NCBI GenBank assembly: GCA_963675515.1
Contig: OY776328.1
Location: 900,001 to 932,000 of the forward strand
DNA length: 32,000 nucleotides
Source: Coprobacillaceae bacterium
GTDB taxonomy: Bacteria; Bacillota_I; Bacilli_A; Erysipelotrichales; Coprobacillaceae
Direction: 5' to 3'
Of this stretch, positions 5,413 to 31,856 are shown one piece after another. The notes under the pieces were generated by a model that was not told where the DNA came from, ran no database searches, and saw only the letters and a program-made list of their open reading frames with translations. The position numbers were made by a program, and so were the translations under genes. Positions within the stretch are counted from its first letter, which is position 1; each line of letters begins with the position of its first letter.

Positions 5413-5491
5413 AAGGCCTCCTTTTCCATTATACCAATATTTTCAATTTTTGATAGTCATAAAAACTTTTATTGACATTGTTTCTTTGTTG

Positions 5492-5505: not shown

Positions 5506-5596
5506 ATAACAGTGTAATCAAAACAGGCCGAGCATTACAACAGTTTTCGAAAACCAGAATTGAAAAACTCAAAACAAAATATTAGGAGAGAATATT

Positions 5597-6913: not shown

Positions 6914-6939
6914 GCTTCTGCTTTTGATTAAACAGTATT

Positions 6940-9204: not shown

Positions 9205-9276
9205 TAACAAACAAATGAAAAGATAACCTGGTTATCTTTTCATTTACCCAAAAATACATGAATTGAGGAAGAGAAA

Positions 9277-11118: not shown

Positions 11119-11151
11119 TTAAATAAAAGGCAAATCACATACCTGAAAATC

Positions 11152-11187
11152 AAAACCCGTGTTCAACTTCGATTGAGCATGGGTTTT
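11152..11187 (+). terminator. Rho-independent terminator after the esterase gene
   Basis: AAAACCCGTGTTCAA pairs with TTGAGCATGGGTTTT (G-U pairs allowed), with TTTT at the 3' end of the stem. Confidence 0.55.
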
Positions 11188-11253
11188 AAATTTGTCTTTG
11201 CCACCAAGTGTGATATAATGCGATTATAAAGCAGTTATGAAAGAGGTGGCAGC

Positions 11254-12225
11254 ATGATTTCACAAGATATCCTGGAGAAACTTATCTGTTTTACCGATGA
11301 GGAGATTGACAATCTCAATAAAAAAAACACTATCGACTACAGCATCTTCGAAAGCACACATTCAAATGTCATTGATGCCGGCAAGATTCTTGAAAACGGG
11401 GCCCAGCTGGCCATCCGCAAGCACGCCCGGTTCATGGAATATCCCAAACACCGCCATAACTATCTCGAGTTGATGTATGTGTACAGCGGCAAGATGACCC
11501 ATCATATTGAAAACAAAGCAATCGTCATCAACCAGGGCGAACTGCTGCTTCTCAACCAGAATATCGAGCATTCGATCGAGTATTGCAACGAGGATGACAT
11601 CATCTTCAATTTCATCATCAAACCGGATTTTCTGGAGTTTTTGGCCACTATGATCGAGGATGAAAACGAGATCAACCAGTTCATCTTCAATGCGCTATAT
11701 TCAAGTGCCAACAACGGTGAATACCTGGTCTTCAAGGTAGCTGAGATAGAAAAGATCCAGGAAGATGTCGAGTCGATCATAACAGCGCTCTACCAGGGAG
11801 GAACGACAACCTTGACCCTCAAGCTGCTTGTCGGCCTGCTTTTAAGCGATCTGATGTATTATCCCGAGACAATCGAAACCTACAGCTCCAATAGTTTTGA
11901 TCTGATAGTTCTTAGCGGCATCTACAAATACATCGAAACCAACTTCCAGAATGCCTCGCTTGGTGAACTTTCCAAGAAGATAAACCAGCCCGACTACAAG
12001 ATTTGCAAGATTGTCAAGAAAATGACAGGCAAGACGTTCAAGGCGCTTGTTCAGGACGTCCGGCTCAACAAGGCGGCTAGTCTGCTCAGGACTACCAATT
12101 TGCCGGTTTCGTCAATAATCAATGAGGTCGGTTATGACAATATGACTTACTTCTATCGGATTTTTGGCGATAAATTCAAACAAAAACCGAATGAATACCG
12201 AATCGGGAGTGAACCTAACAAGTGA
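11254..12225 (+). CDS. AraC-family transcriptional regulator (RhaR/RhaS-like by context)
   Basis: 323 aa with RBS AGAGGTGG. It has a cupin-type N-terminus (HRHNYLELMYVYSG) and an AraC HTH C-terminus (SIINEVGYDNMTYFYRIFGDKFKQKPNEYR). It lies directly upstream of rhaBAD. Confidence 0.8.
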   Translation: MISQDILEKLICFTDEEIDNLNKKNTIDYSIFESTHSNVIDAGKILENGAQLAIRKHARFMEYPKHRHNYLELMYVYSGKMTHHIENKAIVINQGELLLLNQNIEHSIEYCNEDDIIFNFIIKPDFLEFLATMIEDENEINQFIFNALYSSANNGEYLVFKVAEIEKIQEDVESIITALYQGGTTTLTLKLLVGLLLSDLMYYPETIETYSSNSFDLIVLSGIYKYIETNFQNASLGELSKKINQPDYKICKIVKKMTGKTFKALVQDVRLNKAASLLRTTNLPVSSIINEVGYDNMTYFYRIFGDKFKQKPNEYRIGSEPNK

Positions 12226-12263
12226 ACAAAATGATCTGACTGCAAATCAGGTTAATAAATAAG

Positions 12264-15815: not shown

Positions 15816-16973
15816 ATGTCAAAAAGATTTATCTTAAATGAAACAAGCTACCATGGAAGCGGAGCAATCAAGGAGATTGTGAGTGAGGCAGTTTCCCGCC
15901 AATTCAAAAAAGCCCTTATCGTAACTGACAAGGACCTGGTGAAATTCCAGGTAGTCAAAAAAGTGACTGACCTTTTGGATGAAGCAGGACTTGCTTATGA
16001 GATTTTCGACGAGGTAATGGCTAATCCGACTATCGAACTGGTTACCAATGGAGTAGCAGCCTTCAAACAAAGCGGGGCGGACTACATGATCGCCATCGGT
16101 GGCGGATCACCTCAGGACGCAGCAAAAGCGATCGGAATCATCATCAACAATCCGGAATTCGCCGATGTGAGATCTTTGGAAGGTGTCGCACCGACCAAAA
16201 ACAAATGCGTTCCAATCATCGCCGTGGCAACTACAGCCGGAACCGCAGCTGAAACGACAATCAATTATGTCATCACTGACGTCCAAAACAAACGCAAATT
16301 CGTCTGCGTCGATGTCCATGACATCCCAGTAGTGGCGATTGTTGATCCGGACATGATGGCTTCGATGCCAAAAGGACTTACTGCAGCTACTGGTCTTGAT
16401 GCCTTGACTCATGCGATTGAAGGCTATACGACTCTAGGTGCGTGGGAACTGGCTGATACTCTTAACCTTAAAGCGATCGAACTGATTGCCAGAAGCTTGG
16501 AAGCTGCCTGCCAGAACGATTCTAAAGGTCGTGAGGACATGGCTTTGGGTCAATATATGACCGGAATGGCTTTCTCGAACGTGGGACTAGGTGTAGTCCA
16601 TGGTATGGCTCATCCGCTAAGCGCATTTTATGACACGCCTCATGGTATCGCCAATGCTGTGTTGCTTCCTTACGTGATGGAGTACAACAAAGACTTCACT
16701 GGAGCGAAATTCAAGGAAATCGCCAAAGCGATGGGTGTAAGTGGTGTCGAAGCCATGAGCGAAGCTGAATACAAGCAAGCCGCTATCGATGCGGTTGTCA
16801 CCCTGTCTAAAAACTGTGGAATTCCTCAGACCTTGAAGGAAATCGGTGTCAAGGAAGAAGACCTTGAAGCCTTGACTGCAGCGGCCATGGCCGATGTGTG
16901 TACCGGTGGGAATCCTCGTCCTTGCCAAAGCGATGAGATCCTGGCATTATACAATACAGCATATAGCGGATAA
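15816..16973 (+). CDS. fucO: Lactaldehyde reductase / L-1,2-propanediol oxidoreductase (iron-containing ADH)
   Basis: 385 aa with RBS AGGGAGAAG. Fe-ADH motifs: GGGSPQDAAKA and GVVHGMAHPLSAFYDTPHG. Its position after rhaD fits reduction of the L-lactaldehyde released by RhaD. Confidence 0.85.
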   Translation: MSKRFILNETSYHGSGAIKEIVSEAVSRQFKKALIVTDKDLVKFQVVKKVTDLLDEAGLAYEIFDEVMANPTIELVTNGVAAFKQSGADYMIAIGGGSPQDAAKAIGIIINNPEFADVRSLEGVAPTKNKCVPIIAVATTAGTAAETTINYVITDVQNKRKFVCVDVHDIPVVAIVDPDMMASMPKGLTAATGLDALTHAIEGYTTLGAWELADTLNLKAIELIARSLEAACQNDSKGREDMALGQYMTGMAFSNVGLGVVHGMAHPLSAFYDTPHGIANAVLLPYVMEYNKDFTGAKFKEIAKAMGVSGVEAMSEAEYKQAAIDAVVTLSKNCGIPQTLKEIGVKEEDLEALTAAAMADVCTGGNPRPCQSDEILALYNTAYSG

Positions 16974-17098
16974 TTTCTGCCAAAATTGTCCAAACCTTCC
17001 ATTATAATTTAATCATTCGCAACTAATCCATTATCAATTTTATAACACTAATCCAATAATATAAGACCGTGCCAAGTGCACGGTCTTTTCATTTGGGA
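16479..17098 (+). repeat. Left copy of the ~620-bp direct repeat (intact fucO 3' end, 3' UTR and terminator)
   Basis: Collinear with 26290-26906 from GAACTGATTG to CACGGTCTTT. My hand comparison gives roughly 45 mismatches or indels in about 620 nt. An extra 9-mer, TTAACCTTA, is shared at 16462 and 26262. Confidence 0.85.
17063..17089 (+). terminator. fucO rho-independent terminator
   Basis: AAGACCGTGC-CAAG-TGCACGGTCTTTT: a GC-rich stem followed by a T-run. Confidence 0.7.
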
Positions 17099-17229
17099 AT
17101 TATTCACTAAGTGTCAATCCATCGTACAAAATCCAGATAAGGTAAGCCTGTTTGTTTAAATAAGCATATATGATTATCAAGTGAGCCGGTCAATTGGCGG
17201 AATCCAATTATCTCCTTGTCAATAACTTG

Positions 17230-17274
17230 TTGATGTCAAGTATACTTGATATCAATAAGTTTCTTCGGTATGAT
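17230..17274 (+). promoter_or_regulatory. Sigma-A-type promoter overlapped by a 26-bp palindromic operator
   Basis: The palindrome TTGATGTCAAGTATACTTGATATCAA (17230-17255) has 24 of 26 positions symmetric. The -35 TTGATA (17246-17251), a 17-nt spacer, and the -10 TATGAT (17269-17274) lie upstream of the 99-aa ORF. Confidence 0.4.
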
Positions 17275-17313
17275 TAAAGAGGTTAATTAATTTACATTAG
17301 GAGGAATAATTGA

Positions 17314-17613
17314 ATGTTTAGTCACATGGATGAAATTGAATTATTACAATATCTAAAAGCTGTCAGAATAACATATTACTTCACGTTGACGTTAGAAGTA
17401 ATTGCTTTCATATATTCTATACCCTGTTTAAACGAGTACTCAAATTTGATATTGCTCTTTATTTTGTCGCAACGTCTTCTTGTTACCATTGTTGTTGAAT
17501 ATTACAAAGTAAAGGCAGGTAAGAAAATGAGTAAAATACGTTTTGTCGCTGGTTGCATATTGATGATTGCTATAATGTTATTAATAATAAAATTGTCCTT
17601 AGTTCCCGGGTAG
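17314..17613 (+). CDS. Hypothetical small membrane protein (about 3 TM segments)
   Basis: 99 aa with a very good RBS (AGGAGG, 8 nt from the ATG). It has hydrophobic segments and a lysine-rich loop. I recognise no family. Confidence 0.5.
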   Translation: MFSHMDEIELLQYLKAVRITYYFTLTLEVIAFIYSIPCLNEYSNLILLFILSQRLLVTIVVEYYKVKAGKKMSKIRFVAGCILMIAIMLLIIKLSLVPG

Positions 17614-17970
17614 CTTTTCTAACCACATCTCAGGTTTTCGGTATCCTGACCGGGCATTCAATACCAAATGCTTTGTAGCAATCATTCGCCTTCTTGAAAG
17701 CTTCTTGAGTGATTGGCTCATATTTTTATCCTCGCTATCATGTCTAAATGATACGCTAAGAGGATGAAAAAGTTAAGGAAAACAGCAATTTTAGAAGGCA
17801 CAAAACACCCTTCTATCGCAACTTTAATTTAGGATAAAACCGAGTAAAAAGTTTACCTAAGTCATGTGGTCATTCAAAAACAACATTCTAAATATTAATC
17901 TTTCAATCTAAATAGACAGAGAATCTGTGAATTAACACGTTACATTTCCATTTTAGAAATAATATTCCTA

Positions 17971-18064
17971 GTTGATGTTGTTGGTGCGAATATTATGATT
18001 TTCGTGCTCATCTGTGGATTTAAAAGAGCTTTTTTGCTTTAATTTTATTATACCAACTGAGAGG
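17971..18064 (+). promoter_or_regulatory. Paralogue of the agrD-like promoter with candidate LytTR direct repeats
   Basis: It aligns without gaps to 31633-31726, about 71 of 94 identical by hand count. Direct repeats TTGGTGC (17981-17987) and TTCGTGC (18001-18007) are 20 bp apart. The -10-like box is TATACC (18049-18054), followed by a GAGAGGGGAG RBS-like run. Confidence 0.45.
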
Positions 18065-18090
18065 GGAGAGTGGTGGAGTAATCAAAAACC

Positions 18091-18258
18091 ATGTTAATGT
18101 TTGAAGTATATTTACTTGTTTCGGCATTTGTTTCATTAATTCTTAAAATGTCACGAGTAATTCCTAGAAAAAATATACTTATTATAGATAAAATGGTATT
18201 GAAATGGCCTGTAGCATTCATTACAGTTGCCTTGAGGATATATATTCACAACAGGTGA
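18091..18258 (+). CDS. Hypothetical 55-aa two-helix hydrophobic peptide downstream of the LytTR-box paralogue
   Basis: ATG at 18091 to TGA at 18256-18258 (MLMFEVYLLVSAFVSLILKMSRVIPRKNILIIDKMVLKWPVAFITVALRIYIHNR). It lacks a well-spaced RBS and overlaps a minus-strand track ORF. The call is weak. Confidence 0.25.
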   Translation: MLMFEVYLLVSAFVSLILKMSRVIPRKNILIIDKMVLKWPVAFITVALRIYIHNR

Positions 18259-18687
18259 ATATATATATTTACTTGGATGGTTGATTATTTTGGACTTTGT
18301 GGACATTATTATGTGTTTCAAAAAATCAAATAAATAATAGTACACGCCAAATAGAGCGTTGGGCCATTCGTGTAGTACGATATCGATAAAATCATTGGCA
18401 CGTAAAAAGGAATACCGCAACTTCTATTTCTGTTTTGGTATTCCTTGTTTCAGTTCTTTGATTTCCTTGCAGGTTTACTGCCGCAAATGTGTTGGCAATA
18501 CTTCATGGTAAGGAAGTAGTTTCTTAATTCTTCTTTATTTTCAGGATCGTTATTCGGTAGTCGCGCTAGAATCCATGATTGAAGAATAAAACACGCACAC
18601 ACCAAACATATTAAAAAAATGAATCTGAAATTATCGAATTCATTTATAGTTGTTTACTAAAATTTAGAAATCAATAGATTTAAAGTG

Positions 18688-18716
18688 TCGACATGAGTTA
18701 ATTTGAGTATTATACT
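18688..18716 (+). promoter_or_regulatory. Sigma-A-type promoter upstream of the small membrane protein and bacteriocin genes
   Basis: TCGACA (18688-18693), a 17-nt spacer, then TATACT (18711-18716). Confidence 0.45.
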
Positions 18717-18812
18717 ACGTAAAGAGTAGCTAACTGAGGTTTAATTGATTATTAGCTGCCTATCTGCTGCATCTAAACGATAAATATTAAATATGTAATT
18801 TAAGAAAGTAAA

Positions 18813-19028
18813 ATGAGGATTCGAATTTTGAAAATTATTATTATGCATTTGCCATTCGTTCTATTTATAATTACTGCGATATTTTTAAGAATAATTAATG
18901 TACCTTTAGTTTATAAGGCTATATTAATTGTGGCGGTAATTATTTACGGTGTGTTTTTTACAAAAAAATCTAGGAGTTATTTTCAAGACATGCTCTCTGG
19001 CAGCAACGTAAATGAGAACAGGAAATAG
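18813..19028 (+). CDS. Small cationic two-TM membrane protein; candidate circular-bacteriocin immunity protein
   Basis: 71 aa with two hydrophobic helices and a basic tail (KKSRSYF...NENRK). It lies immediately upstream of the bacteriocin gene. Size and character match the small immunity proteins of circular bacteriocin clusters. The assignment rests on context only. Confidence 0.45.
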   Translation: MRIRILKIIIMHLPFVLFIITAIFLRIINVPLVYKAILIVAVIIYGVFFTKKSRSYFQDMLSGSNVNENRK

Positions 19029-19134
19029 ATTTATAGAGGGGTTAAAATTATTTCCAATTTGGCCGTTCTATTCTACATTATCATCAAGTTGATGAAGTTA
19101 TAGATATATATAATTAGAAAGGGGGGTGAATCAA

Positions 19135-19368
19135 ATGGGAGCATTGTTATTTTTAGTCGCTGGAACATTAGGGGTCAGCACAACTATTGCAACATCGGTT
19201 GTTAGCATTGTATTGACAGGGTCAACTATTATCACTATTATTTTGGCACTTACTACAATCCTTTCTGCTGGTGCAGATGCAATTTTGACAATGGGATGGA
19301 CAGCTTTCGTTACAACAATTAAGACTATTGCTCAAAAGCAAGGTATTAAATATGCTGTGGCCTGGTAA
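19135..19368 (+). CDS. Circular bacteriocin precursor, circularin A/uberolysin-like (77 aa: ~7-aa leader plus ~70-aa core)
   Basis: The ATG at 19135 lies 8 nt after the RBS AAAGGGGGG. The track start at 19126 is a GTG inside the RBS. The sequence is MGALLFL/VAGTLGVSTTIATSVVSIVLTGSTIITIILALTTILSAGADAILTMGWTAFVTTIKTIAQKQGIKYAVAW. It aligns along its whole length with my recollection of circularin A (MFL/VAGALGVQT...LMTIGWATFKATVQKLAKQSMARAIAY). The C-terminus resembles AS-48 (...AVIAW). DUF95 and ABC ATPase genes lie downstream. Confidence 0.8.
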   Translation: MGALLFLVAGTLGVSTTIATSVVSIVLTGSTIITIILALTTILSAGADAILTMGWTAFVTTIKTIAQKQGIKYAVAW

Positions 19369-19436
19369 CTATTCCAAAAAATCAATAGTCGAATGGCGTG
19401 TGCTACACGCTTTCGGCTATTTTAATTATAATAAAG

Positions 19437-21114
19437 GGTAGTGTCAAATTCGTTATGGAAAAACAGTGATTTTTTCATAATAGAGTTTCGTGTTCGTTTT
19501 GTCGGTAATACCTAAGCGCTTCTTCCATGAGGATGTTCCACTTGTTTGGCATGTTATGAGTTTTCTTCAAACAATCCAATTCAACTGGTGGCTTGTATCC
19601 CAGGGAGGTGTGATTTCTTAGGAAATTGAAATATGTTGTGAACAGACACATGAAATCATTTGCGCCATCCAATGAGTTGAAGCCATTTTTGATCGCGTAG
19701 GTTTCTCCAAATGTTCTATTCAAACGCTCTATTATTTGTTTGGCAGGGCGATGTTCTTTTGATACAGGATCATCATTCGTAAGTCCAATTACTTGAGTCA
19801 CTTTAAAAAATACTCTTTTGATTTGAAAATACTGTTGAGCGGCTTTATATATCGGATTTCCGTCAACAACGATCTCAAAGTCAGTCGGTAACTTTTTGAA
19901 TTTTCTCATGACTGAATAAAAGGCATTTATAGCCGCAAAGGTATCTCTTTTCATGAAAATTCGATACGAAGTTATTATTTTTTTCCTAACATCGCACATG
20001 AAAAATACATAGGCTTTTTTTCCTAAAACTTTGACGTATGTTTCGTCTCCACAATGATACGAGTTCAAATCGTGCTTGTAGTTATCCATCCACGGAAATA
20101 GGAGATGGCTGGCTGCCTGAGCGTAGTTAGCTATTGTTTGATGGGATATTTTGATATCGTGAATCTCGTATAAAACCAAAGCGGTTTTTCTAAGAGACAG
20201 GCCATAATTAACGTAATACGTCAACGCTAGGCCTAAAACATGCTTAGAATTGTGGATTCTGGAGAGATCAACTTTTGATGGTGCTATTTTCAGCTGGATG
20301 CTTTCAAGTTTTTCGATTGAAGCATCGAAGACGCGGGTTATGTAGTGAAGCGAGAATTTAGAAGGATTTACCTTGTATTTCTTTTTATCTTCTTTTGTTA
20401 GTTTCTTCAACTCACTCTTATAGTGAGAACATCTAGAGTTTTGACATTTATAGACATCAAAACCATCACGTGATTTGATCAACGTCAACTTGCGGCCGCA
20501 GTGAGGACACTTGCGGATCAATTGTTGCGAATAACTCTTATTAAGTGAGAAAGTCGTATCACAAACTTTGCACTTAACTTGGGATTTCTTGATTCCGTTG
20601 TTGAAAGTCAGGTATTCATGAGTGGCGCCGCAATGTGGGCAAACAGTATCTTCAGATGGATAGTCTTTGCCTTCATGTCTAAACACCGGTTTCAAAGGTC
20701 GTTTATGTTTGGATTCATACTCATCCCTGGCCTGTTGAAATGGGATGGGGATTAATTGCGGTTCAATAACAGGAAGCGGATGCATTTTGAAACGACGATA
20801 TGGTTCACTCTTACTTGAATCCGTACCATCACTGGGAAGATGCTTTAGCAGGAAACACTCAAATTTGTACAAAAATCTACGAATGATATTTAAAAAATTG
20901 ATTATTAATGATATAATTTTGACCATGGTAACAGTCCTCCTTATTGTGGTTTAGACACTTACAATTATGAGGCTGTTACCTTTTTTTGTAAACAAAATGG
21001 TCAAATTATAGGGTGAAATCCGGGGGAATTTACCTAAATATATAAAAAACCAAGGTAGAATGCGGTTTTCCAGTTAATTATGGTTGTAAATAACTAACTG
21101 GTTTTGACACTACC
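19437..21114 (-). mobile_element. IS6-family-like insertion sequence (long form with Zn-finger N-terminal extension), 1678 bp
   Basis: Perfect 12-bp terminal inverted repeats GGTAGTGTCAAA sit at 19437-19448 and, as complement, at 21103-21114. An 8-bp target duplication TAATAAAG lies at 19429-19436 and 21115-21122. There is a single transposase ORF. Confidence 0.8.
19475..20926 (-). CDS. IS6-family-like DDE transposase with N-terminal zinc-ribbon region
   Basis: 483 aa with RBS AAGGAGG. CxxC pairs: CPHCG...CKVCD and CPHCG...C. The DDE core resembles IS26/IS257-type transposases (GDETYVKVLGKKAYVFFMCD, VVDGNPIY, QIIERLNRTF). Confidence 0.85.
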   Translation of the reverse strand: MVKIISLIINFLNIIRRFLYKFECFLLKHLPSDGTDSSKSEPYRRFKMHPLPVIEPQLIPIPFQQARDEYESKHKRPLKPVFRHEGKDYPSEDTVCPHCGATHEYLTFNNGIKKSQVKCKVCDTTFSLNKSYSQQLIRKCPHCGRKLTLIKSRDGFDVYKCQNSRCSHYKSELKKLTKEDKKKYKVNPSKFSLHYITRVFDASIEKLESIQLKIAPSKVDLSRIHNSKHVLGLALTYYVNYGLSLRKTALVLYEIHDIKISHQTIANYAQAASHLLFPWMDNYKHDLNSYHCGDETYVKVLGKKAYVFFMCDVRKKIITSYRIFMKRDTFAAINAFYSVMRKFKKLPTDFEIVVDGNPIYKAAQQYFQIKRVFFKVTQVIGLTNDDPVSKEHRPAKQIIERLNRTFGETYAIKNGFNSLDGANDFMCLFTTYFNFLRNHTSLGYKPPVELDCLKKTHNMPNKWNILMEEALRYYRQNEHETLL

Positions 21115-21137
21115 TAATAAAGGTAGGTACATTTATT

Positions 21138-22259
21138 ATGAAAATTACTAATTATGTTAAAATGATATGTTTATTTTATAAAAACATATCACTTGAGAAA
21201 ATATCATTTATAGCAAGGAAAATGAAAAGTGATAATCCATTTAGAATGCATTTAATTTGTGAATCATTGAAACTGTTTAGTTCAATTTTGATGATTATCT
21301 TGTTATATAATAATGTATATAGTTATAACACAAATCTATTTGTTTCCATTTTATTGTTAATTTACCTTGTACAAAATTTGTTGATGCTTGTGGGTCCCTG
21401 GAAGATAATAAGAAAGAGATTCAAATATAGTTACTTACGGATGACTGCTTCCGGAGATTGTATGTATCTCCGAAAAGTTATTGTGCTTAACTTTTTTGTT
21501 GAATATTTATTATCACTTCCAATGAATTTGCCTATTTTGATTGGACTTATAGTCACAGCCAATTTGTTTGCGGTGCTGTTAGCCATAAATATTAGTGCGT
21601 TATCATTTCTTTTCTACATAATCAGACATTCTCAAAAGATGTTGAGAAAAGGACCAATGGCTACAATAATGTTTTTTGTTTCACGTATGTGCACATTTTC
21701 AATAGGTTACTTATTTGCATTTATATTATCAAGATTGGTCTTAATATCTAGATCTGGAATAAAAGAATTTGGTTTGTCCGTAATGTACGTTTCATGGGTG
21801 GATAGTATAATTAACGATTCTTTGTTTTCCATAACAAAATATTTTCGTAATATATTATTAAACGTCGATTACTATCTAGTAAACGACTATCGAATTATTA
21901 GTTTTCTATTAATATTGATATTATTTTTCGTATTTATTTCGTTAATGATTTTGAAACGTATTTCTAAAGAAATCATACAAATAACATACAAATTACCAAA
22001 TTGCTATATTAACTCATTAAGTAAATTTGAAAATAAACATGAAATTGATAATCCGTTTTTGTTCAAAGATCTGTGCATTTTCATTGATAAAACAAGGAAA
22101 CTTGAGTACAGTCCAATGGAGTTCCTATTTACGAATGAGCTGTTCTTTTTTATAGGGATAAATATAGTATTTTTACCACTAATCAATAATTATTTTATCT
22201 TTGCGTTTTTATTTGTTTTTGAACTTTTTTTCTTAATTGACCACCAAATACATCCTTAA
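21138..22259 (+). pseudogene. N-terminal part of the IS-disrupted large polytopic membrane protein (CirB/As-48B-like maturation protein)
   Basis: Multi-TM ORF. Its last 9 codons and the stop at 22257-22259 are read from the left end of an IS. Native sequence ends at the TSD at 22224-22231. Confidence 0.7.
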
Positions 22260-22289
22260 ATCTAATAATGATTTACACACCGTTTTTCC

Positions 22290-23433
22290 GGCTATGTTAG
22301 CCCAAAGCAATGCTTTCATAGATGAAGCCTGTTCCAATATAATTTTCTCGCCTAAAATCACAATGGCATTGATAAATATCCACAAAATAATCATGGACGT
22401 CTCTAGCTCTTGTTTCAATCATGTATGCTATGTACGCCAGATATTCATTAAGGTATTTAGAAGATATCCCATTGTGTTTTTTCATATACTTTTCAATTTG
22501 AGAATGCACGTAATTGACGTGATTTATGTGGTAGATTCCTCGCTTTGCCTTGCTTTTTGCTGGAAACGCATAATGGTCGATTTTCAGACTCTCACTTAAT
22601 CTTCGATATACGAATAATCCATCCGTACAAAGCGTTGTTGCTTTTTGAAGGTGTTTCAGATATACAGCGGTTGTCGTTTCGTTATCAAGCGTTGTCGATC
22701 CGATCTTAGCGACCTTGAGTAATATATGGCCGTTCCTGTCAACCGCGCTTGCTATTTGTACGGCATCGGTTATATTTTGATCTTTCTTGTCTCTACGGTT
22801 ACCTTTTCGTCCTCTTTTATAGGGCTTCCTGGGTAATGGTTTTGCCGCCTGTTTACTGTGATTCCCGGAATAACTGATGTTTACGCTCATTTCATCTAAT
22901 TCCACAATCCCGCTAAGCTCAACGTTTTCCATCCTGTGAGCTAGCGCGTTCAATATTTTATGGCGCATGAAAAAACTGCATTTTAACGACACTCCTGCAT
23001 ATTTGGCACAGTCCCTCAAATCTTCGTCATGGCTCATTATTATCAGATACTTAAGCCAGGTTATATAAGAAAGTTTGGTATTCTCCAAAATTGTACCAAC
23101 ATACGGAGTAAAAGTTTTACCGCAATCAATGCATCTAAAACGTTGTGTTTTGTTTTTGTAGTGGCCATCTCGTTTAATATGATGGTGACCGCAACGAGGG
23201 CACGAAATTGAATCGTTGTGTTTGGCTTCTAATGCATCCACAAGGATCTTGGTGTAATCATTTAGAAGTTGACGGTCCTGAATGAAAACAATTAGGGCGT
23301 TTAAATCATCGCTGTTTAAAGTATCCAGTTCATTCTTAATTTTTTCTAATTCCATGGTTATCCCACCTCTTCTCTATTATACACCTAATTCTACAGGAAA
23401 AGTCGATAAACATCTTTATGGGCTAACATAGCC
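22290..23433 (-). mobile_element. IS1595-family-like element A (1144 bp), nested 50 bp inside the left end of element B
   Basis: 14-bp perfect inverted repeats are GGCTATGTTAGCCC (22290-22303) and GGGCTAACATAGCC (23420-23433). The 8-bp target duplication GTTTTTCC lies at 22282-22289 and 23434-23441. Confidence 0.8.
22297..23355 (-). CDS. IS1595-family transposase (zinc ribbon plus ISXO2-like DDE domain)
   Basis: 352 aa with RBS AGAGGTGGG. Zinc ribbon: CPRCGHHHIKRDG...FRCIDCGKTF. It has an ELDEMSV acidic motif. The stop codon lies in the terminal repeat. Confidence 0.85.
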   Translation of the reverse strand: MELEKIKNELDTLNSDDLNALIVFIQDRQLLNDYTKILVDALEAKHNDSISCPRCGHHHIKRDGHYKNKTQRFRCIDCGKTFTPYVGTILENTKLSYITWLKYLIIMSHDEDLRDCAKYAGVSLKCSFFMRHKILNALAHRMENVELSGIVELDEMSVNISYSGNHSKQAAKPLPRKPYKRGRKGNRRDKKDQNITDAVQIASAVDRNGHILLKVAKIGSTTLDNETTTAVYLKHLQKATTLCTDGLFVYRRLSESLKIDHYAFPAKSKAKRGIYHINHVNYVHSQIEKYMKKHNGISSKYLNEYLAYIAYMIETRARDVHDYFVDIYQCHCDFRRENYIGTGFIYESIALG

Positions 23434-23511
23434 GTTTTTCCGCCTTCTAAATTCTTGGTTTTTAGTGATTAGACTTCATCACTTTGGTATGATATTACCG
23501 AGGTGATATCA

Positions 23512-24483
23512 ATGGCAATAAAACTAAAACCGAAGAAAGATTCTTTAATAACTCTTACTAGAAAATATGCTAATGACAATGATGAATGTGTGAAGTTCTT
23601 CTTCACTATCAAGTGGCCTGAAGGGTTCTACTGTGAAAAGTGCGGTTGTACGCATTACTACTTCATTGAAAGTAGAAAAGCTTATCAATGCAAGGAATGC
23701 AAACATCAGCACTATCTGCTAGCAGGTACCATATTCCAGGACACCAAGCTCGAACTTTACAAACTGATCTTAGGCATGTATATTTTCTTTACCTCCAATA
23801 AAGGTGTTTCAGCAATAGAACTCGCAAGTGAACTCGACGTCAATTACAAAACAGCCTTACTTCTTGCCAGAAAATGTCGAATTTTGATGGCTCAAAGCTG
23901 TAGTGAAAAGATGCTCGATAGCTTGTTTTATGAAGCTGACGTCGCATATATTGGATCCAAGAGCAAAGAGAAGAATCGTCAAGGTTGTGCTACAGAGCAA
24001 CAGCCTTTTTTGGTCGTACTTTCGACGGATGCAGAAAATCATTACCCAAAATACATCAAACTTCACCCTATTCCAACCGACAATCAAATCCAGGTAAAAA
24101 ATGTCATCTCGAAGAGCATCAAACTATCAAAGGATCGAAAACTGAATACCGATGGCAAAACTACATTTAACAAAATTGAGGATGAGATTGAGTTGTGTAA
24201 GGAAAAGATCATTTACAAAGAGGATGATCATCGCTTGTATTGGATTAACACTTTGATTGGTGATATCAAAAACAATATCACTGGAATATATCATGGCGTA
24301 GCAAAGCGGGATCTGCCTTTATTCCTAAATGAGCAGGAGTGGCGCTTCAACCACCGTTATACAGGTGCTTATTTCATGGATAAAATAAGAAAATATCTGC
24401 TACTTTCATCGCCGATGCCAAAAAGAAAAATCGTAACGGTTCTTAACTTAGCAGAATCATATTTTTCAAGTACATGTATCTGA
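23512..24483 (+). CDS. IS1595-family transposase of element B
   Basis: The likely start is the ATG at 23512, 6 nt after GAGGTG. The track start at 23503 is the GTG inside that RBS. N-terminal motif: FFFTIKWPEGFYCEKCGCTHYY...YQCKECKHQH...AGTIFQDTKL. It has an EADVAYIG motif. The stop lies inside the right inverted repeat. Confidence 0.8.
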   Translation: MAIKLKPKKDSLITLTRKYANDNDECVKFFFTIKWPEGFYCEKCGCTHYYFIESRKAYQCKECKHQHYLLAGTIFQDTKLELYKLILGMYIFFTSNKGVSAIELASELDVNYKTALLLARKCRILMAQSCSEKMLDSLFYEADVAYIGSKSKEKNRQGCATEQQPFLVVLSTDAENHYPKYIKLHPIPTDNQIQVKNVISKSIKLSKDRKLNTDGKTTFNKIEDEIELCKEKIIYKEDDHRLYWINTLIGDIKNNITGIYHGVAKRDLPLFLNEQEWRFNHRYTGAYFMDKIRKYLLLSSPMPKRKIVTVLNLAESYFSSTCI

Positions 24484-24503
24484 TGGTCAATTAAGCTTTT
24501 TTT

Positions 24504-25107
24504 TATAATTGTAGGAAATTTAAGAATTGTAACATATAGATTTGATGAAGTGTTTAGATTTAGAAGCGATATCGATAAATGGAAAATAATTTACTTGTCG
24601 GGCACTAGAGGAACATATCAGGTCTTGTTTTCAAAATATTATTTGTTGAAGCACCTTGCCAAAATCCCTTGTTTATTTACTTGTTTTGTGTTATTTGTAA
24701 TGTTTTCTGGCTATATGTCAATATATGCTACCATTCTTATTCTAGATATTGCGATCGTCATTGCACTCTTTAGCGATATAGTTAAATGGATACTGAGAAC
24801 AGATTACGATTTTTATTGTATAATTATTAAAAACAAGTACGCAGTTAATGAGGTCTCGATTGAGGATTATTTGGGTTATAATCTGGTATCCAATGCAAAT
24901 AAAACGGTACATAGGTTGTTTTTGTTTGTTACATTTTTTATTTTAATATTATGTTCGTTTTTGAAGTTAATTTCAGGATGGCAATGGGTTATATTTTATG
25001 TTACATATTTAATTGTTTTCGTGATCGATATAAAAGCAAATTCTATGTACTATCCTACGGATAAAATAATTAAAATTGGAAGGAGAGAATTGAATGAGCA
25101 GAATTAA
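24504..25107 (+). pseudogene. C-terminal part of the IS-disrupted CirB/As-48B-like membrane protein
   Basis: The frame is open from the right target duplication. The track ORF 24550-25107 merely starts at an internal GTG. Joining 22231 to 24504 keeps the frame (see findings). Confidence 0.7.
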
Positions 25108-25621
25108 TAGAATAATATCCGGGCATGTCAAATACTTATGTATTTCTATATCTGTTTATATTTTAGGGATAATTTTTGGAATGATTATTTCAGCTGATAC
25201 GAAATTGACTATCAATCCAACTAGTATGCAATTTGTTGAAACATTTGTCCACAATGAAATAATCGGGTTAGGTTTGGTTGTTTTTGGAATTGTAACGTTT
25301 GGATTTTTCAATACTATTTTCCTGGCATACAATGGGTTTTCATTGGGTTTGATAATAATTGGCGTATACAATCAATATGGTATAAGTCCATTGATTTCTG
25401 GTGTTGCCCCACATGCTCTAATTGAAACTTTTGCCATAACAATGTCATGTACGCTAGGATATGAGTCGTTGCGCCTTGTAAAGATGGTAAAAAATAATTT
25501 AGATTCGGATATAAAGGGAAAAATTTATATAAGTGATTTTATAATATTACTAATATCCACTAGTTTGCTATATGTTGTCGGGGCATTCATAGAATCATCA
25601 TTCTCAAATGTAATAATATAA
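25094..25621 (+). CDS. DUF95/SpoIIM-family membrane protein (As-48C/CirC-like)
   Basis: 175 aa with about 4 TM segments and RBS GGAGAG. It overlaps the upstream gene by 14 nt. The conserved PH-x-x-x-E motif (APHALIETFAIT) is typical of SpoIIM/DUF95 proteins found in circular bacteriocin clusters. Confidence 0.7.
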   Translation: MSRINRIISGHVKYLCISISVYILGIIFGMIISADTKLTINPTSMQFVETFVHNEIIGLGLVVFGIVTFGFFNTIFLAYNGFSLGLIIIGVYNQYGISPLISGVAPHALIETFAITMSCTLGYESLRLVKMVKNNLDSDIKGKIYISDFIILLISTSLLYVVGAFIESSFSNVII

Positions 25622-25634
25622 AGGGGGCAAGAAA

Positions 25635-26264
25635 ATGAATGATGTAGTACTTGATATAAAAGAGTTATCATATAGTTATGACGGGAAAAAATTTATCTTA
25701 AAAAATATAAACTTTTTCATTAGAGAAGGAGAGGTGGTAAAACTTAGTGGACCTAACGGGGTTGGCAAATCGACATTTCTTAATATAGTTTCAGGTCTAA
25801 TTGATGATTCCAATTTAGAATATACTGCGGAATTTCAAAATGAGGAGATAATATTTGAAAATATGCGTTCTAGAATATCTTTTGTACTGGATACACCAGA
25901 ATTATTCGATCAACTTACTGGATCTGAAAACATTAAAATGTACAGCTTACTGTTTGAGTGTGATGATGCATATTTTGATAGAGTTCTGGACTGGTGCAAT
26001 AAATATCGTATAATAGATTTTTTAAGCCGTCCGGTAGAAGAGTATTCCTTGGGTACTCGACATAAATTGTTCTTAGCGATACTCATATCGAGAAAAGTTG
26101 ATCTTATTCTTTTAGATGAGCCTTTCAATGCTTTGGATGATTCTAGTAGAAAATACCTTGTTGGGCATATTAATTCTTGTAGAGACTCTTCGTTCATCAT
26201 TGTTTCACATCTTAATCAACCTGGTCTGAAATTGGATAGGGATTTTGAAATGAAATTATATTAA
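25635..26264 (+). CDS. ABC transporter ATP-binding protein (As-48D/CirD-like)
   Basis: 209 aa with RBS AAGGGGG. Walker A: GPNGVGKST. Degenerate signature: YSLGTRHKL. Walker B: LILLDEPFNALD. No cognate permease gene is adjacent. Confidence 0.85.
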   Translation: MNDVVLDIKELSYSYDGKKFILKNINFFIREGEVVKLSGPNGVGKSTFLNIVSGLIDDSNLEYTAEFQNEEIIFENMRSRISFVLDTPELFDQLTGSENIKMYSLLFECDDAYFDRVLDWCNKYRIIDFLSRPVEEYSLGTRHKLFLAILISRKVDLILLDEPFNALDDSSRKYLVGHINSCRDSSFIIVSHLNQPGLKLDRDFEMKLY

Positions 26265-26289
26265 CCTTAGTTCCTAGTCGGCTTTTCTT

Positions 26290-26783
26290 GAACTGATTGT
26301 CAGAAGCTTGGAAGCGGCCTGCCAGAACGATCCTAAGGGTCATGAAGACATGGCTTTGGGTCAATACATGACCAGAATGGCTTTCTCGAACGTGGTACTT
26401 GGTGTGGTCCATGGGGTGGCTCATCCACTAAGCGCATTTATGACACGCCTCATGGCATCGCCGATGCCGTGTTGATTCCTTACGTGATGGAGTACAACAA
26501 AGACTTCACCGGAGCAAAATTCAAGGAAATCGCCAAAGCGATGGGTGTAAGTGGTGTCGAAGCCATGAGCGAAGCTGAGTACAAGCAAGCCGCTATCGAT
26601 GCGGTTGTCACCCTTTCTAAAAACTGTGGAATTCCTTAGACCTTGAAGGAAATCGGTGTCAAGGAAGAAGACCTTGAAGCCTTGATTGAAGCTGCCATGG
26701 CCGATGTGTGCACCGGTGGGAATCCTCGTCCTTGCCAAGGCGACGAGATCCTGGCATTATACAAAACAGCATATAACGGATAA
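26290..26783 (+). pseudogene. Decayed duplicate of the fucO 3' end (last ~165 codons)
   Basis: Collinear with 16479-16973. It has a 1-nt deletion in the T-run at ~26437-26439 (GCATTTATGAC versus GCATTTTATGAC). It has an in-frame TAG at 26637-26639 (CAG in the intact copy). Several substitutions are non-synonymous. There is no 5' part and no start codon. Confidence 0.85.
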
Positions 26784-26906
26784 TTTCTGCCAAAATTGTT
26801 CGAACCTTCCAATATAATTTAATCATTTGCAACTAATCCATTATCTATTTTATAACACTAATCCTATAATATAAGACCGTGCCCTTGGCACGGTCTTTAA
26901 TTTGAA
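26290..26906 (+). repeat. Right copy of the ~620-bp direct repeat (fucO remnant, 3' UTR and terminator copy)
   Basis: See the left copy at 16479-17098. The terminator copy AAGACCGTGCCCTTGGCACGGTCTTT lies at 26873-26898. Confidence 0.85.
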
Positions 26907-27024
26907 AAATCGTTATTCAGATAATGTGACTTGCTGAAACTGGTCTTGGTTTCCTAGTTATTGCTCCAATAATCTCATGTTCATTTTGAAATATGAATAT
27001 TGTGATTGGTTTTCTAAAATTCTA

Positions 27025-27591
27025 TCAGGATTGTTCCGGTTTACTTGGTAATAATACCGAATTCAATATTATTGCCGATATCGATAAAAAAGATCCGGTA
27101 GCGGCGTAGCTAGTATATCCGCTTTTTACGGATGATAAAATCAAGATCGTTATAGTATTCAGCGAATACAAAATAAGTTTATTTCGAAGATCATTTCTCT
27201 CAAAAGTCCTTTTCCAAGGATTAATATTTATCAGCACAAATATTGAAAGAAATAGAAAGTACCCCAGGACATAGATCATAATTGAAGGCATAATGGAACT
27301 TAATAACATCCCAATTGACCAAATAATAATACCTAATAAGTAGCATCCAAAAGGTGTTTTGGAATGATACCCGGCATTGTTGGTCCTGAAGACAAGAAAA
27401 CACGATAGCATTATCAGGGATTCCAAAAATCTGCCGCTAAGTATCGAAATGATTAAATAACTAATGGAATTTAACGCAAATAATATTATAGCGGATAAAG
27501 CATATTCTATTTGCTGCATTTTGAATGCGTCATCAATGCAATTTTTTTGGCAAATTTTACGTGAAAGACGTGAAACAAATACGTGCAGCAT
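27025..27591 (-). CDS. agrB: AgrB-family AIP-processing membrane peptidase
   Basis: 188-aa polytopic protein. The motif FRTNNAGYHSKTPFGCY places a His and a Cys 7 residues apart, as in S. aureus AgrB (RRHAHGAHAPSSFWCY). Its ATG lies 1 nt after the kinase stop, with the GAGGTG RBS inside the kinase 3' end. Confidence 0.8.
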   Translation of the reverse strand: MLHVFVSRLSRKICQKNCIDDAFKMQQIEYALSAIILFALNSISYLIISILSGRFLESLIMLSCFLVFRTNNAGYHSKTPFGCYLLGIIIWSIGMLLSSIMPSIMIYVLGYFLFLSIFVLININPWKRTFERNDLRNKLILYSLNTITILILSSVKSGYTSYAATGSFLSISAIILNSVLLPSKPEQS

Positions 27592-27592
27592 T

Positions 27593-28861
27593 TTACACCT
27601 CAGTATTATAAATATAAATATTAATGTCTTGATGGGTTACCGCCGGGATTAGGATGGTAACTTTAAATGTTGCCTCCGTATAACTGACATCAATCATGCC
27701 ATCGTATTTTTTTACTATTCTTCTGATGTTTTTCAAACCGTAACCGTGATTAGCGCCACCCTTTCGTGAAAGGATTTTAGAATCACTTAAAATGATTTTT
27801 CCGTCAAATGTGTTCTCACAAATTATTCTAATCATTTTGTTTGGAAGTAGAGCTATTGATATACGAACCCTTTTATTCTCTGTGGTTTGAGCAGCTTCTA
27901 AAGCATTGGAAGTAATATTTCCAAATAATGAACACAAATCAAAATTATCGATGTGAGAAATGTCCGGAACTTCTAACTCGATATCGAGTGAAACGCCCAA
28001 TAAATTACTTTTACTGATAAAGTCACTTATTGTAGAGTCAAGGTAGATGTTTCCTGTATTCACAACGATAATTTTGTTGTCCATTTCCAATCCGATATTA
28101 TTGATATATTCTTCCAATTGAGTATATGACTTATTCGAGACAAGATGGCCAAGCGTGTTGAGGTGGAATTTTACGTCATGCTTCCATGATTTAAGGTGGT
28201 TGTATGATTTGATTGTTTTGTCATAAAGTTCGGTTCTGAGTTCATTCTCTTTAAGCAATAGGTCGATACTGTATTTTCTCGTTAAGTTTGTAATTAGTAT
28301 TCTTGTTTGAACAAATGAGATTAAATTGACTGCAAAAAGGGAGACAGTAATGACCAACAAATACAGATTATCTGAATTAAACTCTAAATAATGTCTTAAT
28401 ATAAATACCATGGATAAAACTGAAGCCAGTGGCACTACCATATATAAATAAACGTATCTTTCATTATTATCAAGATTGTTTGAATAAGAACCTCTGTTCA
28501 TTTGAAGAGAGATAAGAAACATCAGTATAAATATTATTGTTCTTGTAATAATCATCAGCAGTAATCTGATGAACTCTTCTCCCATCAGCTGCTGGACATC
28601 AATGCTTGAAAACGATGTTACCAGTGATATGGTAATCAATTCGACCAGGTTAAATATCAAAAAAGCAACAACTGGAACTAAAAATTTAAATAGAAAGCGC
28701 CCGCTGTAAAAAATCAGTGAATATAAGATATAAATTAGAAATACCAGCATTACTGCGCTTGAATTGTATTTTTGAATGGTAAACACAGTTAAAATTGCAG
28801 ATATAAAAATGAAAATTGCTGCGTTGATATAACGCATTGGAAGTTCTTTATTTACTAGCAT
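27593..28861 (-). CDS. agrC: AgrC-like (HPK10-type) membrane sensor histidine kinase
   Basis: 422 aa with about 6 N-terminal TM helices. H-box: WKHDVKFHLNTL. N-box: GNITSNALEAA. G-box: NHGYGLKNI. The RBS at 28861 is poor, so the start is uncertain (the alternative is the MRYIN Met). Confidence 0.8.
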   Translation of the reverse strand: MLVNKELPMRYINAAIFIFISAILTVFTIQKYNSSAVMLVFLIYILYSLIFYSGRFLFKFLVPVVAFLIFNLVELITISLVTSFSSIDVQQLMGEEFIRLLLMIITRTIIFILMFLISLQMNRGSYSNNLDNNERYVYLYMVVPLASVLSMVFILRHYLEFNSDNLYLLVITVSLFAVNLISFVQTRILITNLTRKYSIDLLLKENELRTELYDKTIKSYNHLKSWKHDVKFHLNTLGHLVSNKSYTQLEEYINNIGLEMDNKIIVVNTGNIYLDSTISDFISKSNLLGVSLDIELEVPDISHIDNFDLCSLFGNITSNALEAAQTTENKRVRISIALLPNKMIRIICENTFDGKIILSDSKILSRKGGANHGYGLKNIRRIVKKYDGMIDVSYTEATFKVTILIPAVTHQDINIYIYNTEV

Positions 28862-28978
28862 TGAATCAATAAAAAACAGGACGAGAAAGACATCTACTAA
28901 ACCCCCTGTGTTAGGATAGTTGTCGTATAGAACGTTTTAGATTATACTTAGTAAAAAGTATACCAAGGAGACCTAGCC

Positions 28979-30610: not shown

Positions 30611-31318
30611 CTATCCTCCAAAAAATTTCAAAAACAGATTTTGTACATCTTTCATTTTTGATCTCCCTACCGGAATTGAGTCTCCGTTAGAAATTTGAAC
30701 ATACTGACTTTTAAACGAAGCCACATAGTTCAAATTTACAATGTATGACCTATGTATTCTAAACATATCATGGTCAATCAACAAATCTTCAATTTTTGAA
30801 ATTGGAATATTGATTTGCTTTTCTTCTTCTATCATATGAAATATGCAATTATGTTTATCTGACTCAACATACATAATGGATTTTGTATCTATCGTATAGT
30901 AACCGTTTGATGCGTCTAAACGAATTAATCTGTCGATGTTTTTTTGAAGAGAATTAGCAATCTGATCTAATGTTTTATTTAATCTAGTCTGGTTGACGGG
31001 CTTTACAATATAATCCAGCGCAGACACCTCATATCCATTGATTGCAAACTGGCTGTGTGAAGTAATAAAACATATTATGATATTCTTATTGTTTTTCCTG
31101 AGCTCTTTAGCAAATTCAATACCGGAAATTTCAGGAATTTCTATATCGAGTAGTGCCACATCGCAGTCCATTGCTTCTCCAGGAATCATGTATGATACTT
31201 TATTGGTAACGGTAAATTCTACAATGTTATTTGTGTTTTTTGCCCAATTGTCGATATATCCAATTAAAATGTCCCGGTCTATTTTAGAATCTTCAGCGAT
31301 GAAAAAACTAATGTTCAT
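30611..31318 (-). CDS. agrA: LytTR-family response regulator (AgrA-like)
   Basis: Start moved to MNISFFIAEDSK with RBS GAGAGGGG. The track start at 31447 adds 43 implausible residues. The receiver domain has DVALLDIEIP, and the C-terminal LytTR domain has IMYVESDKHNCIF...FRIHRSYIVNL. Confidence 0.85.
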   Translation of the reverse strand: MNISFFIAEDSKIDRDILIGYIDNWAKNTNNIVEFTVTNKVSYMIPGEAMDCDVALLDIEIPEISGIEFAKELRKNNKNIIICFITSHSQFAINGYEVSALDYIVKPVNQTRLNKTLDQIANSLQKNIDRLIRLDASNGYYTIDTKSIMYVESDKHNCIFHMIEEEKQINIPISKIEDLLIDHDMFRIHRSYIVNLNYVASFKSQYVQISNGDSIPVGRSKMKDVQNLFLKFFGG

Positions 31319-31632
31319 GTAATTATCCCCTCTCTCATTTTGTTTCAATTCTACATGATTGTAACATATATTTTGCAGTTTGTATAATTGTTCCGAACAT
31401 AAATCCGTCAATATAAAGGATACAGGAGAGTATTTTTGTATAAACATAATACATTACTTAATTAATCATCAAATACAGGTGAGCACGGTATTGGATTATT
31501 GTCGATTTTGAAAAATCACCAAATGTCGCGCATTTTGGATGTAGTAATATTTCTTCGTTACTGACTATGAACTCCAAGATGTATCTGTTGGCTAATTAAG
31601 AAACATTATTTTTTTGTTCAATTATTTTCTTT

Positions 31633-31726
31633 GGTGTTGTTGTTGGTGCAAAAATTTTGCTTTTCATGCTCAATAGTGGAATCTAAAGAAATTTGATGTT
31701 TAAAATTAATTATACTAAATGAGAGG
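31633..31726 (+). promoter_or_regulatory. agrD-like promoter with candidate LytTR direct repeats
   Basis: Direct repeats TTGGTGC (31643-31649) and TTCATGC (31663-31669) are 20 bp apart. The -10 box TATACT lies at 31711-31716 with no good -35, which suggests activator dependence. RBS GAGAGGAG follows. It is paralogous to 17971-18064. Confidence 0.45.
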
Positions 31727-31736
31727 AGATAATCGA

Positions 31737-31856
31737 ATGGAATCAAAAAAAGTTGTGAAATTTTTGATAAAAATATCACAGGCTGCTAGCGACATAACTT
31801 GCTGGGGTGCATTTTTTCAACCTGATGCGCCAAAACGAAAATTTATTTCAAAATAA
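31737..31856 (+). CDS. agrD: AgrD-like autoinducing-peptide precursor (39 aa, below the ORF-track size cut-off)
   Basis: The peptide is MESKKVVKFLIKISQAASDITCWGAFFQPDAPKRKFISK, with RBS GAGAGGAG 7-8 nt upstream. It has an amphipathic basic N-terminus. A single Cys is followed by 4 residues (CWGAF). The tail is aromatic-Q-P-x-x-P, comparable to L. plantarum LamD (CVGIW/FETKIPDE) and Listeria AgrD (CFMFV/YEPKSP) as I recall them. Confidence 0.65.
   Translation: MESKKVVKFLIKISQAASDITCWGAFFQPDAPKRKFISK

Follow-up and report, generated by a model that had tools for sequence, protein, structure and literature searches.

The chromosome of a Coprobacillaceae bacterium (GenBank assembly GCA_963675515.1, contig OY776328.1) carries two copies of the 3' end of the lactaldehyde reductase gene fucO, with an AT-rich bacteriocin island between them. 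Both copies lie within the stretch of 32,000 nucleotides that was analyzed here (positions 900,001 to 932,000 of the forward strand), which we refer to as the window and whose numbering is used throughout. We consider it probable, at roughly 0.6, that this repeat is the scar of a homology-anchored acquisition of the island just 3' of the fucO terminator, in which the fucO 3' end would have served as the homology arm and no dedicated recombinase would have taken part. A single crossover of the Campbell type is the most likely route, with homology-facilitated illegitimate recombination (HFIR) being a close variant that has the same topology.

The duplicated fucO 3' end

Strains were compared through four contigs (L081-L084), which were retrieved from a large protein database as the sources of four FucO homologues (P0001-P0004) from other strains that are 95-98% identical to FucO of the window. 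The features on which the argument rests are as follows.

15816 to 16973, plus strand: fucO, lactaldehyde reductase of 385 aa, intact, the final gene of the rhaB-rhaA-rhaD-fucO block (Pfam Fe-ADH and ADH_Fe_C, full-length coverage)
16479 to 17088, plus strand: left repeat copy, consisting of fucO codons 222-385, the 3' untranslated region (UTR) and the terminator hairpin (17063-17087)
17089 to 17147, plus strand: segment 'a', which follows the terminator, is common to the island-free L081 and to L084 and is not island-specific (window 17092-17147 against L081 11276-11329, 89%)
17148 to 26289, plus strand: island body, an AT-rich circular-bacteriocin cluster with relics and insertion sequence (IS) copies, standing where L081 has 216 bp
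26290 to 26897, plus strand: right repeat copy, the displaced remnant of a fucO 3' end, now a pseudogene, with UTR and hairpin (26873-26897), joined directly to the flank of an agr-like locus

A seeded repeat search identified these copies as the only long direct-repeat pair in the window, with 16479-16628/26290-26439 matching at 91% and 16627-16926/26437-26736 at 96%, a 1-bp indel shifting one part relative to the other. What is duplicated comprises 164-165 codons at the fucO 3' end together with the 3' UTR and its terminator hairpin. In a global alignment 573 of 620 columns were identical (92.4%), the coding part (495 bases) being 93.7% identical and the UTR with the terminator 87.8%, a similarity that is far above chance. 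According to the comparison with the relatives, the homology runs 3' as far as the base of the terminator hairpin (left copy, 17087/17088; right copy, 26897/26898), giving copies of 610 bp and 608 bp. The hairpin is intact in both copies and the T-tract of the right copy is cut by the junction, which is why the right hairpin is no longer called by a terminator scan.

At its 5' edge the homology begins with 10 identical bases (GAACTGATTG), which are followed by mismatches, and the longest identical run (62 bp, 16707-16768) is central. The inner junction of the right copy (26289/26290) falls in the middle of the gene, at fucO codon ~221 and 25 bp past the stop codon of an ABC-ATPase gene, and is an arbitrary point. 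The DNA between the copies (17099-26289) is 9,191 bp long and has a GC content of 33.4%, or 30.4% without its IS copies, compared with 45-48% in the neighboring core.

These data refine a first-pass annotation of the window, which had described a repeat of ~620 bp with a hand-counted identity of 90-93% around a 9.2-kb, AT-rich bacteriocin segment. The duplication of the fucO 3' end, UTR and terminator proved to be real, the precise identity fell within the range counted by hand, and the length and composition of the bracketed segment were confirmed; the 3' limits had to be corrected, as the last 8-10 bases of the proposed repeat belong to the flank. The left copy does, as had been proposed, complete an intact fucO, and the right copy has both the frameshift and the premature stop that had been ascribed to it.

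When the left copy is taken as reference, the right copy lacks one base (left-copy position 16626) and reads TAG in place of CAG at 16827, and the codon differences between the two comprise 14 that are non-synonymous and 17 that are synonymous. An unpolarized count by codon position, in which 18 of 31 left-right differences were at third positions, did not separate two distinct alleles from a duplicate that had simply decayed. Polarizing the differences with the four relatives did. The copies differ at 49 sites, and at 26 of these the right copy is private; its 15 private coding changes are spread 7:4:4 over codon positions 1, 2 and 3, with the frameshift and the TAG included. Ten sites are private to the left copy (seven of the nine coding ones at third positions), and at 13 both states segregate in the intact fucO of other strains (seven of the eight coding ones at third positions). 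The right copy carries a state known from the intact fucO of other strains at 23 of the 49 sites (the 10 left-private and the 13 shared), and these are mostly third positions.

Judged by codon position, the even spread of the right-private changes is that of neutral decay, and the third-position bias of the left-private changes that of evolution under selection. Based on this polarized-site pattern, we interpret the right copy as a separate, once-functional allele of the population that was later silenced, and not as a decayed duplicate of the left copy. This interpretation agrees with the first-pass view that the divergence was unlike that of a recent tandem duplication. The private neutral divergence of the right copy is 2.8% (14 substitutions in 495 bp), which shows that the event is old, and later IS damage in the island fits such an age. 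The codon positions of the private changes thus separate imported allelic differences from the decay that came afterwards.

FucO of the window also has 75-79% protein identity to homologues from Akkermansia and from metagenome-assembled genomes labeled as Alphaproteobacteria (loci L002-L044), and a Holdemanella/Breznakia match is about as close. These similarities suggest a wide horizontal spread of fucO across phyla.

Strain variation between fucO and rpiR

In L081, whose FucO is 98% identical to that of the window, the fucO terminator is followed by the same agrB-kinase-regulator locus that lies to the right of the second repeat copy in the window, at 94-95% DNA identity (93.7% for window 26898-28900 against L081 11546-13549). 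Bacteriocin genes, a second fucO fragment and the IS3 element of the window are all missing from L081, and the first-pass suggestion that the bracketed segment is a strain-variable island was borne out by this comparison. Between its terminator and the agr flank L081 has 274 bp, of which the first 59 bp are homologous to window 17089-17147; these are followed by 216 bp that are absent from the window and for which no counterpart was found in the window or in any compared locus. An empty site in which fucO is followed directly by the right flank had been anticipated and was not found, L081 having these 59 + 216 bp extra.

The remaining relatives have other arrangements at the same position. L082 and L083 have neither the island nor the agr module, and rpiR follows the fucO terminator after 54 bp, with an old-yellow-enzyme gene behind it; in L081 the rpiR and old-yellow-enzyme genes lie 7.7 kb further on. 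L084 has 403 bp past the fucO terminator in common with the window (17089-17491, ~97% identity), after which the contig breaks off, and over a longer distance window 11626-17491 matches L084 25-5890. The island is therefore polymorphic for presence and absence, being missing from L081, L082 and L083 and represented by its left end in L084. All strain breakpoints are at the 3' foot of the terminator hairpin, and the hotspot content has a GC content of 30-36%, compared with 45-48% in the flanking core.

The fucO-to-rpiR interval is a strain-variable hotspot that holds AT-rich modules; the window has two of these, one behind the other, and the extra fucO end separates them. Tandem accretion at a single hotspot had been raised in the first-pass annotation as a possibility, and the compact arrangement of L082 and L083 supports it; the third fucO remnant that the annotation predicted on this basis was not found in the equivalent 7.7-kb module of L081. 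Read from the displaced fucO end, the order of events would be that the agr locus arrived first, the bacteriocin island was then placed in front of it, and the IS insertions came later.

Integration hotspots between core genes are reportedly filled by homologous recombination in their flanks, a finding that is attributed to Oliveira and colleagues (2017, Nat Commun). The fucO-to-rpiR interval is like such hotspots in being one interval with different modules in each strain, AT-rich, IS-bearing and mostly integrase-free. It is unlike them in that the flanking anchor has itself been duplicated inside the hotspot, where it records the order of the modules.

Homologous exchange is active in this population. 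The identity between the window and its relatives ranges from 84.7% to 99.3% in 300-bp steps. In addition, L082 and L083 are 99.6% identical overall, and within the repeat-aligned segment they differ at 13 sites that all fall in the 187 bp from the repeat 5' boundary (window 16479-16665), with none in the other 433 bp. This stretch has the character of a short recombination patch that starts where the 5' boundary of the repeat lies.

More distant sources extended the comparison. Among the matches listed for species-representative genomes, the closest was a Coprobacillaceae metagenome-assembled genome with 87% FucO identity, which is syntenic for the rha-fucO block and not downstream of it. Metagenome scans with the AgrB protein and with a 38-nt pattern from the lineage-specific fucO 3' UTR gave no match.

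Two contigs from one sample (SRR11702756), L084 and L085, end in ~30 bp of unrelated DNA (L084 5891-5921, inside the island gene orf99, and L085 5269-5298, 11 bp past agrB). Other DNA, possibly a repeat that breaks assemblies, may lie between the orf99 and agrB ends in the hotspot of that strain. None of the IS ends of the window accounts for the foreign 31-bp tail of L084, as this tail matched nothing in the window.

Variation was also seen upstream of rhaB, where window 1-12240 and L081 1-6425 are non-homologous, L081 having rhamnosidase and epimerase genes and the window an AraC-type regulator; L082-L084 are like the window in this region. By this comparison the left side of the rha-fucO block is strain-variable as well.

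Proposed acquisition of the island and alternative explanations

The route that we favor would begin in a donor strain in which fucO and its terminator were followed by segment 'a', then by orf99 and finally by the bacteriocin cluster; for the left end at least, this is the arrangement of L084. A fragment from the middle of fucO (codon ~221) to 25 bp past the ABC-ATPase gene would have circularized, and a single RecA-type crossover would have inserted the circle into the fucO 3' end of a recipient whose fucO stood directly before an agr-like locus. As a consequence, the 610-bp arm would have been duplicated on both sides of the island, the upstream copy within a functional fucO and the downstream copy promoterless and without its 5' part, and the latter would then have decayed. 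In the HFIR variant, a linear donor fragment would have been anchored further upstream and its far end joined illegitimately inside the recipient fucO.

The repeat arm is cut at an arbitrary point of fucO, as a truncated homology arm would give. Acquisition by homologous recombination had been offered in the first-pass annotation as an alternative to an integrating element, and it fits the inner end of the right copy, which abuts the ABC-ATPase gene at that mid-gene point. The central 210 bp of the repeat (16666-16875), which include the 62-bp longest identical run, differ by 2.4% between the copies, compared with ~10% on either side and with 3-10% in other strain pairs over the same region; we regard this tract as a candidate for the place of the crossover. 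Haplotypes were also informative. At informative sites of the 3' third, L081, which bears the agr locus, sides with the right copy by 9:1 and L084, which has the left end of the island, with the left copy by 6:5; in the 5' third L084 sides with the right copy by 8:1. This linkage resembles the reciprocal-hybrid pattern predicted by a single crossover, which it slightly favors, the statistics being weak.

There is experimental precedent for such a duplication. A non-replicating plasmid with a lacZ-end segment inserted in E. coli mostly through single crossovers of circles whose arms had been shortened, and the result was gene-end duplications of 109-950 bp (PMC3240628). The window is like these Campbell-type insertion-duplications in having foreign DNA between direct duplications of a few hundred bp of a gene 3' end, an intact upstream copy, one repeat boundary at an arbitrary point of the gene and no dedicated recombinase. 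It is unlike them in that it would represent a natural event in a gut-type Bacillota chromosome, with arms that are 7.6% diverged and a downstream copy that has decayed, and in that the circle is one that we infer.

A second precedent comes from Rhs and type VI secretion system (T6SS) effector-immunity loci, for which PMC5361080 describes HFIR and 'C-terminal / sequential displacement' (citing de Vries & Wackernagel 2002; Prudhomme et al. 2002; Jackson et al. 2009), with repeated displacement building arrays at one locus. The likeness is that a conserved upstream gene provides the homology by which incoming DNA is anchored, that the cargo comes to lie next to this gene, and that the resident 3' end is displaced downstream and orphaned. 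By contrast, the window has its anchor in a metabolic gene with no relation to the cargo and shows only a single displaced end. A reciprocal crossover within the repeat agrees slightly better with the haplotype pattern of the window than would an illegitimate join on one side, as in HFIR at the Rhs/T6SS loci.

Several observations weigh against acquisition through the fucO arm. No donor with the whole island was found, and the cluster ATPase had no relative above 55% identity outside the genome of the window. L084 is a weak proxy for the donor, as it ends 344 bp into the island. The type of recipient that would be required, with the terminator joined directly to the agr flank (AATTTGAAAAA), was not seen among the relatives, L081 having 274 bp at that position. 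The haplotype segments hold few sites (9-14 each, Fisher p = 0.04-0.07), and in so mosaic a population later allelic replacement, or gene conversion between the copies, could give similar patterns. In addition, the full arrangement was seen in one genome only, that of the window, with 100% matches for the cluster ATPase and agrB in one 2.88-Mb contig only.

A history that would need no incoming island at this step is an in-situ rearrangement, in which an illegitimate duplication or a transposition at the locus copied the fucO 3' end across an island that already lay 3' of fucO, after which the copies diverged and one of them was later overwritten by allelic exchange. We consider such a history unlikely. 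The private changes of the two copies are indeed comparable (14 substitutions in 495 bp on the right and 7 changes at 165 third positions on the left), and frequent homologous exchange could have replaced either copy at a later time. However, this account adds an unexplained duplication step and would still require the import of a second allele to explain the 13 segregating sites, it leaves unexplained the linkage of the 3' part of the right copy to the L081-type, agr-associated haplotype, and no IS is present at either repeat boundary.

Elements such as e14 and phage 21 reportedly integrate into icd while supplying a replacement 3' end of their own, an observation that is said to go back to Hill, Gray and Brody in 1989 and to A. 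Campbell's laboratory. These elements encode an integrase, recombine at short core sites and leave exact empty sites. The window resembles them in having an intact gene with an imported 3' end, the original 3' end as a pseudogene fragment beyond the insert, and copies that differ mainly at synonymous sites. An integrating element with a replacement 3' end was one of the proposals of the first-pass annotation, and it would mean that an element of this type had targeted the fucO 3' end and had lost its integrase gene during decay. The topology, with the intact gene on the left, the cargo in the middle and the displaced gene end on the right, would be the same, and in an island this old and degraded (three IS copies and a split B gene) the loss of a gene is plausible.

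We nevertheless consider site-specific integration to be distinctly unlikely, because no recombinase is present, the junction lies at an arbitrary point within the gene, and the island-free allele is not a clean excision product. Scans of the ten principal open reading frames of the island and of eight smaller ones (40-120 aa) with Pfam and NCBIfam identified no tyrosine or serine recombinase, nor any fragment of one, and found only DDE transposases (one IS6-like and two of the IS1595 family), in agreement with the first-pass observation that IS transposases alone lie between the repeats. No integrase or recombinase emerged from any open reading frame of at least 50 aa. The related, intact bacteriocin cluster of another locus (L086) is also without an integrase. 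L081 keeps the 59 bp (17089-17147) that would lie inside the supposed element, besides having the 216 bp that are absent from the window. Moreover, a crossover at a core site on the edge of the repeat would not be expected to leave a near-identical central tract or hybrid haplotypes, and the repeat is about four times longer than in the icd case.

Described relative to L081, the window differs by having exactly 17148-26897 in place of L081 11330-11545. This would suit a double illegitimate insertion, in which the island body and a fucO 3' fragment, from a donor whose fucO had been disrupted by the cluster, replaced the 216 bp in an L081-like chromosome with no role for fucO homology. Such an event is quite improbable, as the junction between segment 'a' and the island body is common to L084 and so predates any event specific to the window, three non-homologous joins would be needed instead of one, and no reason is given for the central tract that is common to both copies. 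An assembly artefact, in which two co-existing strain alleles of the fucO-downstream locus were set in tandem in a metagenome-derived chromosome, is hardly credible: although differing alleles of this locus do co-exist in public data, window proteins are found at 100% identity in one contig only and the closest named relative is a metagenome-assembled genome, the 15 private coding changes of the right copy, with their neutral codon-position spread, frameshift and stop, indicate a long-standing pseudogene and not the working fucO of a second strain, and the join at 26289/26290 has no sequence similarity able to mislead an assembler.

If the island was acquired through the fucO arm, as we favor, the window would represent a natural example of accessory modules stacking at one chromosomal hotspot without an integrase. 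It would extend the 'displaced 3' end' logic of the Rhs/T6SS toxin loci to a housekeeping sugar-utilization gene in an uncultured gut-type Bacillota lineage. No new mechanism is involved; the window would add a further example to a known kind of recombination scar. We also entertain the doubtful idea that the duplicated arm may act as a working 'attachment site' of an integrase-free cassette. If this were true, a RecA crossover between the copies, at 92% identity, would free the arm, segment 'a' and the cluster as a circle able to re-enter any strain of the population via its fucO 3' end. Quorum-sensing-linked bacteriocin modules would then spread from strain to strain by means of a conserved metabolic gene end that works as a portable homology handle.

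Gene content of the island and of the agr-like locus

The genes and relics of the island are listed below; the intact cluster of L086 served as the reference for those that are interrupted.

17314 to 17613, plus strand: orf99, small membrane protein, whose first 178 bp and upstream DNA are common to L084; no Pfam or NCBIfam match
17879 to 18064, plus strand: agr intergenic relic (agrD promoter and ribosome-binding site) of a foreign allelic type
19126 to 19368, plus strand: circular bacteriocin precursor of the circularin A/uberolysin family (PF09221 and TIGR03651)
19475 to 20926, minus strand: zinc-ribbon DDE transposase, IS6-like, lying between the genes for the precursor and the B protein; below the NCBIfam IS6 cutoff
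21138 to 22231, plus strand: 'B' maturation gene for a large membrane protein, N-terminal part (21141-22199 corresponds to residues 4-352 of the 571-aa homologue in L086, which is intact)
22232 to 24495, no strand assigned: nested IS1595-family insertion that splits the B gene, with the inner element at 22289-23434
24496 to 25107, plus strand: C-terminal part of the split B gene (L086 B residues 357-549 map to 24484-25062, in another reading frame)
25094 to 25621, plus strand: SpoIIM/DUF95-type membrane protein, intact (PF01944 at 2.1e-18; 57% identical to the L086 homologue)
25635 to 26264, plus strand: ABC ATPase of the cluster, intact, with its stop codon 25 bp ahead of the junction to the fucO fragment

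The precursor was assigned by its matches to two family models, PF09221 (1.7e-17; 63.8 bits, cutoff 23.6) and TIGR03651 (71.4 bits, cutoff 30.7); in the PDB, enterocin NKR-5-3B (6.5e-6) and AS-48 are similar to it. Among 1.84 billion representative proteins there were 17 relatives at E<=1e-3, the best of which was 65% identical, and on this basis the precursor appears to be a rare, undescribed member of its family. Its C-terminus, KYAVAW, is like the KYAAAW of enterocin NKR-5-3B.

The island is degenerate, with three IS copies and a split maturation gene. The outer IS1595-family element has 22-nt inverted repeats and an 8-bp target duplication, CTTTTTTT. An intact accessory gene set for a circular bacteriocin is not present, as the SpoIIM-type and ATPase genes are whole and the B gene is split. 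The cluster as delivered to this chromosome is probably no longer functional, in that it is probably unable to make mature bacteriocin. An IS-mediated origin of the island, either as a composite transposon or as an IS6 translocatable unit, was considered and rejected, the IS copies all being internal (19.4-21.0 kb and 22.2-24.5 kb) with none at 17099/17148 or at 26289.

The 186-bp agr relic is 92% identical to L085 2353-2536 and 73% identical to the window's own copy of this region at 31620-31749. It has neither an agrD nor a response-regulator gene attached and is oriented toward the bacteriocin genes, based on which the bacteriocin cluster may once have been under quorum-sensing control. The related L086 cluster also adjoins LytTR and kinase genes.

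The second module of the hotspot, to the right of the fucO fragment, comprises the following features.

27025 to 28861, minus strand: agrB (27025-27591) and GHKL histidine kinase (27593-28861); PF04647 and PF14501
28901 to 30574, plus strand: IS3-family element that interrupts the kinase gene ~10 codons from its start; not present in L081; 3-bp overlap where it was inserted
30611 to 31447, minus strand: LytTR response regulator (PF00072 and PF04397), 95.5% identical to that of L081
31737 to 31856, plus strand: AgrD-like peptide gene (MESKKVVKFLIKISQAASDITCWGAFFQPDAPKRKFISK) of 39 aa, divergent from the response regulator and the counterpart of a 35-aa gene in L081

The component set of an agr-type locus is complete, with AgrB, a GHKL kinase, a LytTR regulator and an AgrD-like peptide with a Cys. 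No agrD was found in the gap between agrB and the right repeat copy; the peptide gene lies on the other side of the locus and not next to agrB. The peptide, which was assigned without a profile model, is 35-39 aa long, and its motif TCWGAF(F/Y)QPD is kept in the window, in L081 (14554-14661) and in L085 (~2220-2342, minus strand), with variable flanking residues. As a result of the IS3 insertion, the histidine kinase of the window is without its first ~10 codons (422 aa, compared with 445 aa in L081), and this quorum-sensing locus is probably impaired. A second AgrB paralogue (P0130), 67% identical, is encoded outside the window in the same genome, which indicates that the organism has at least two agr-like systems.

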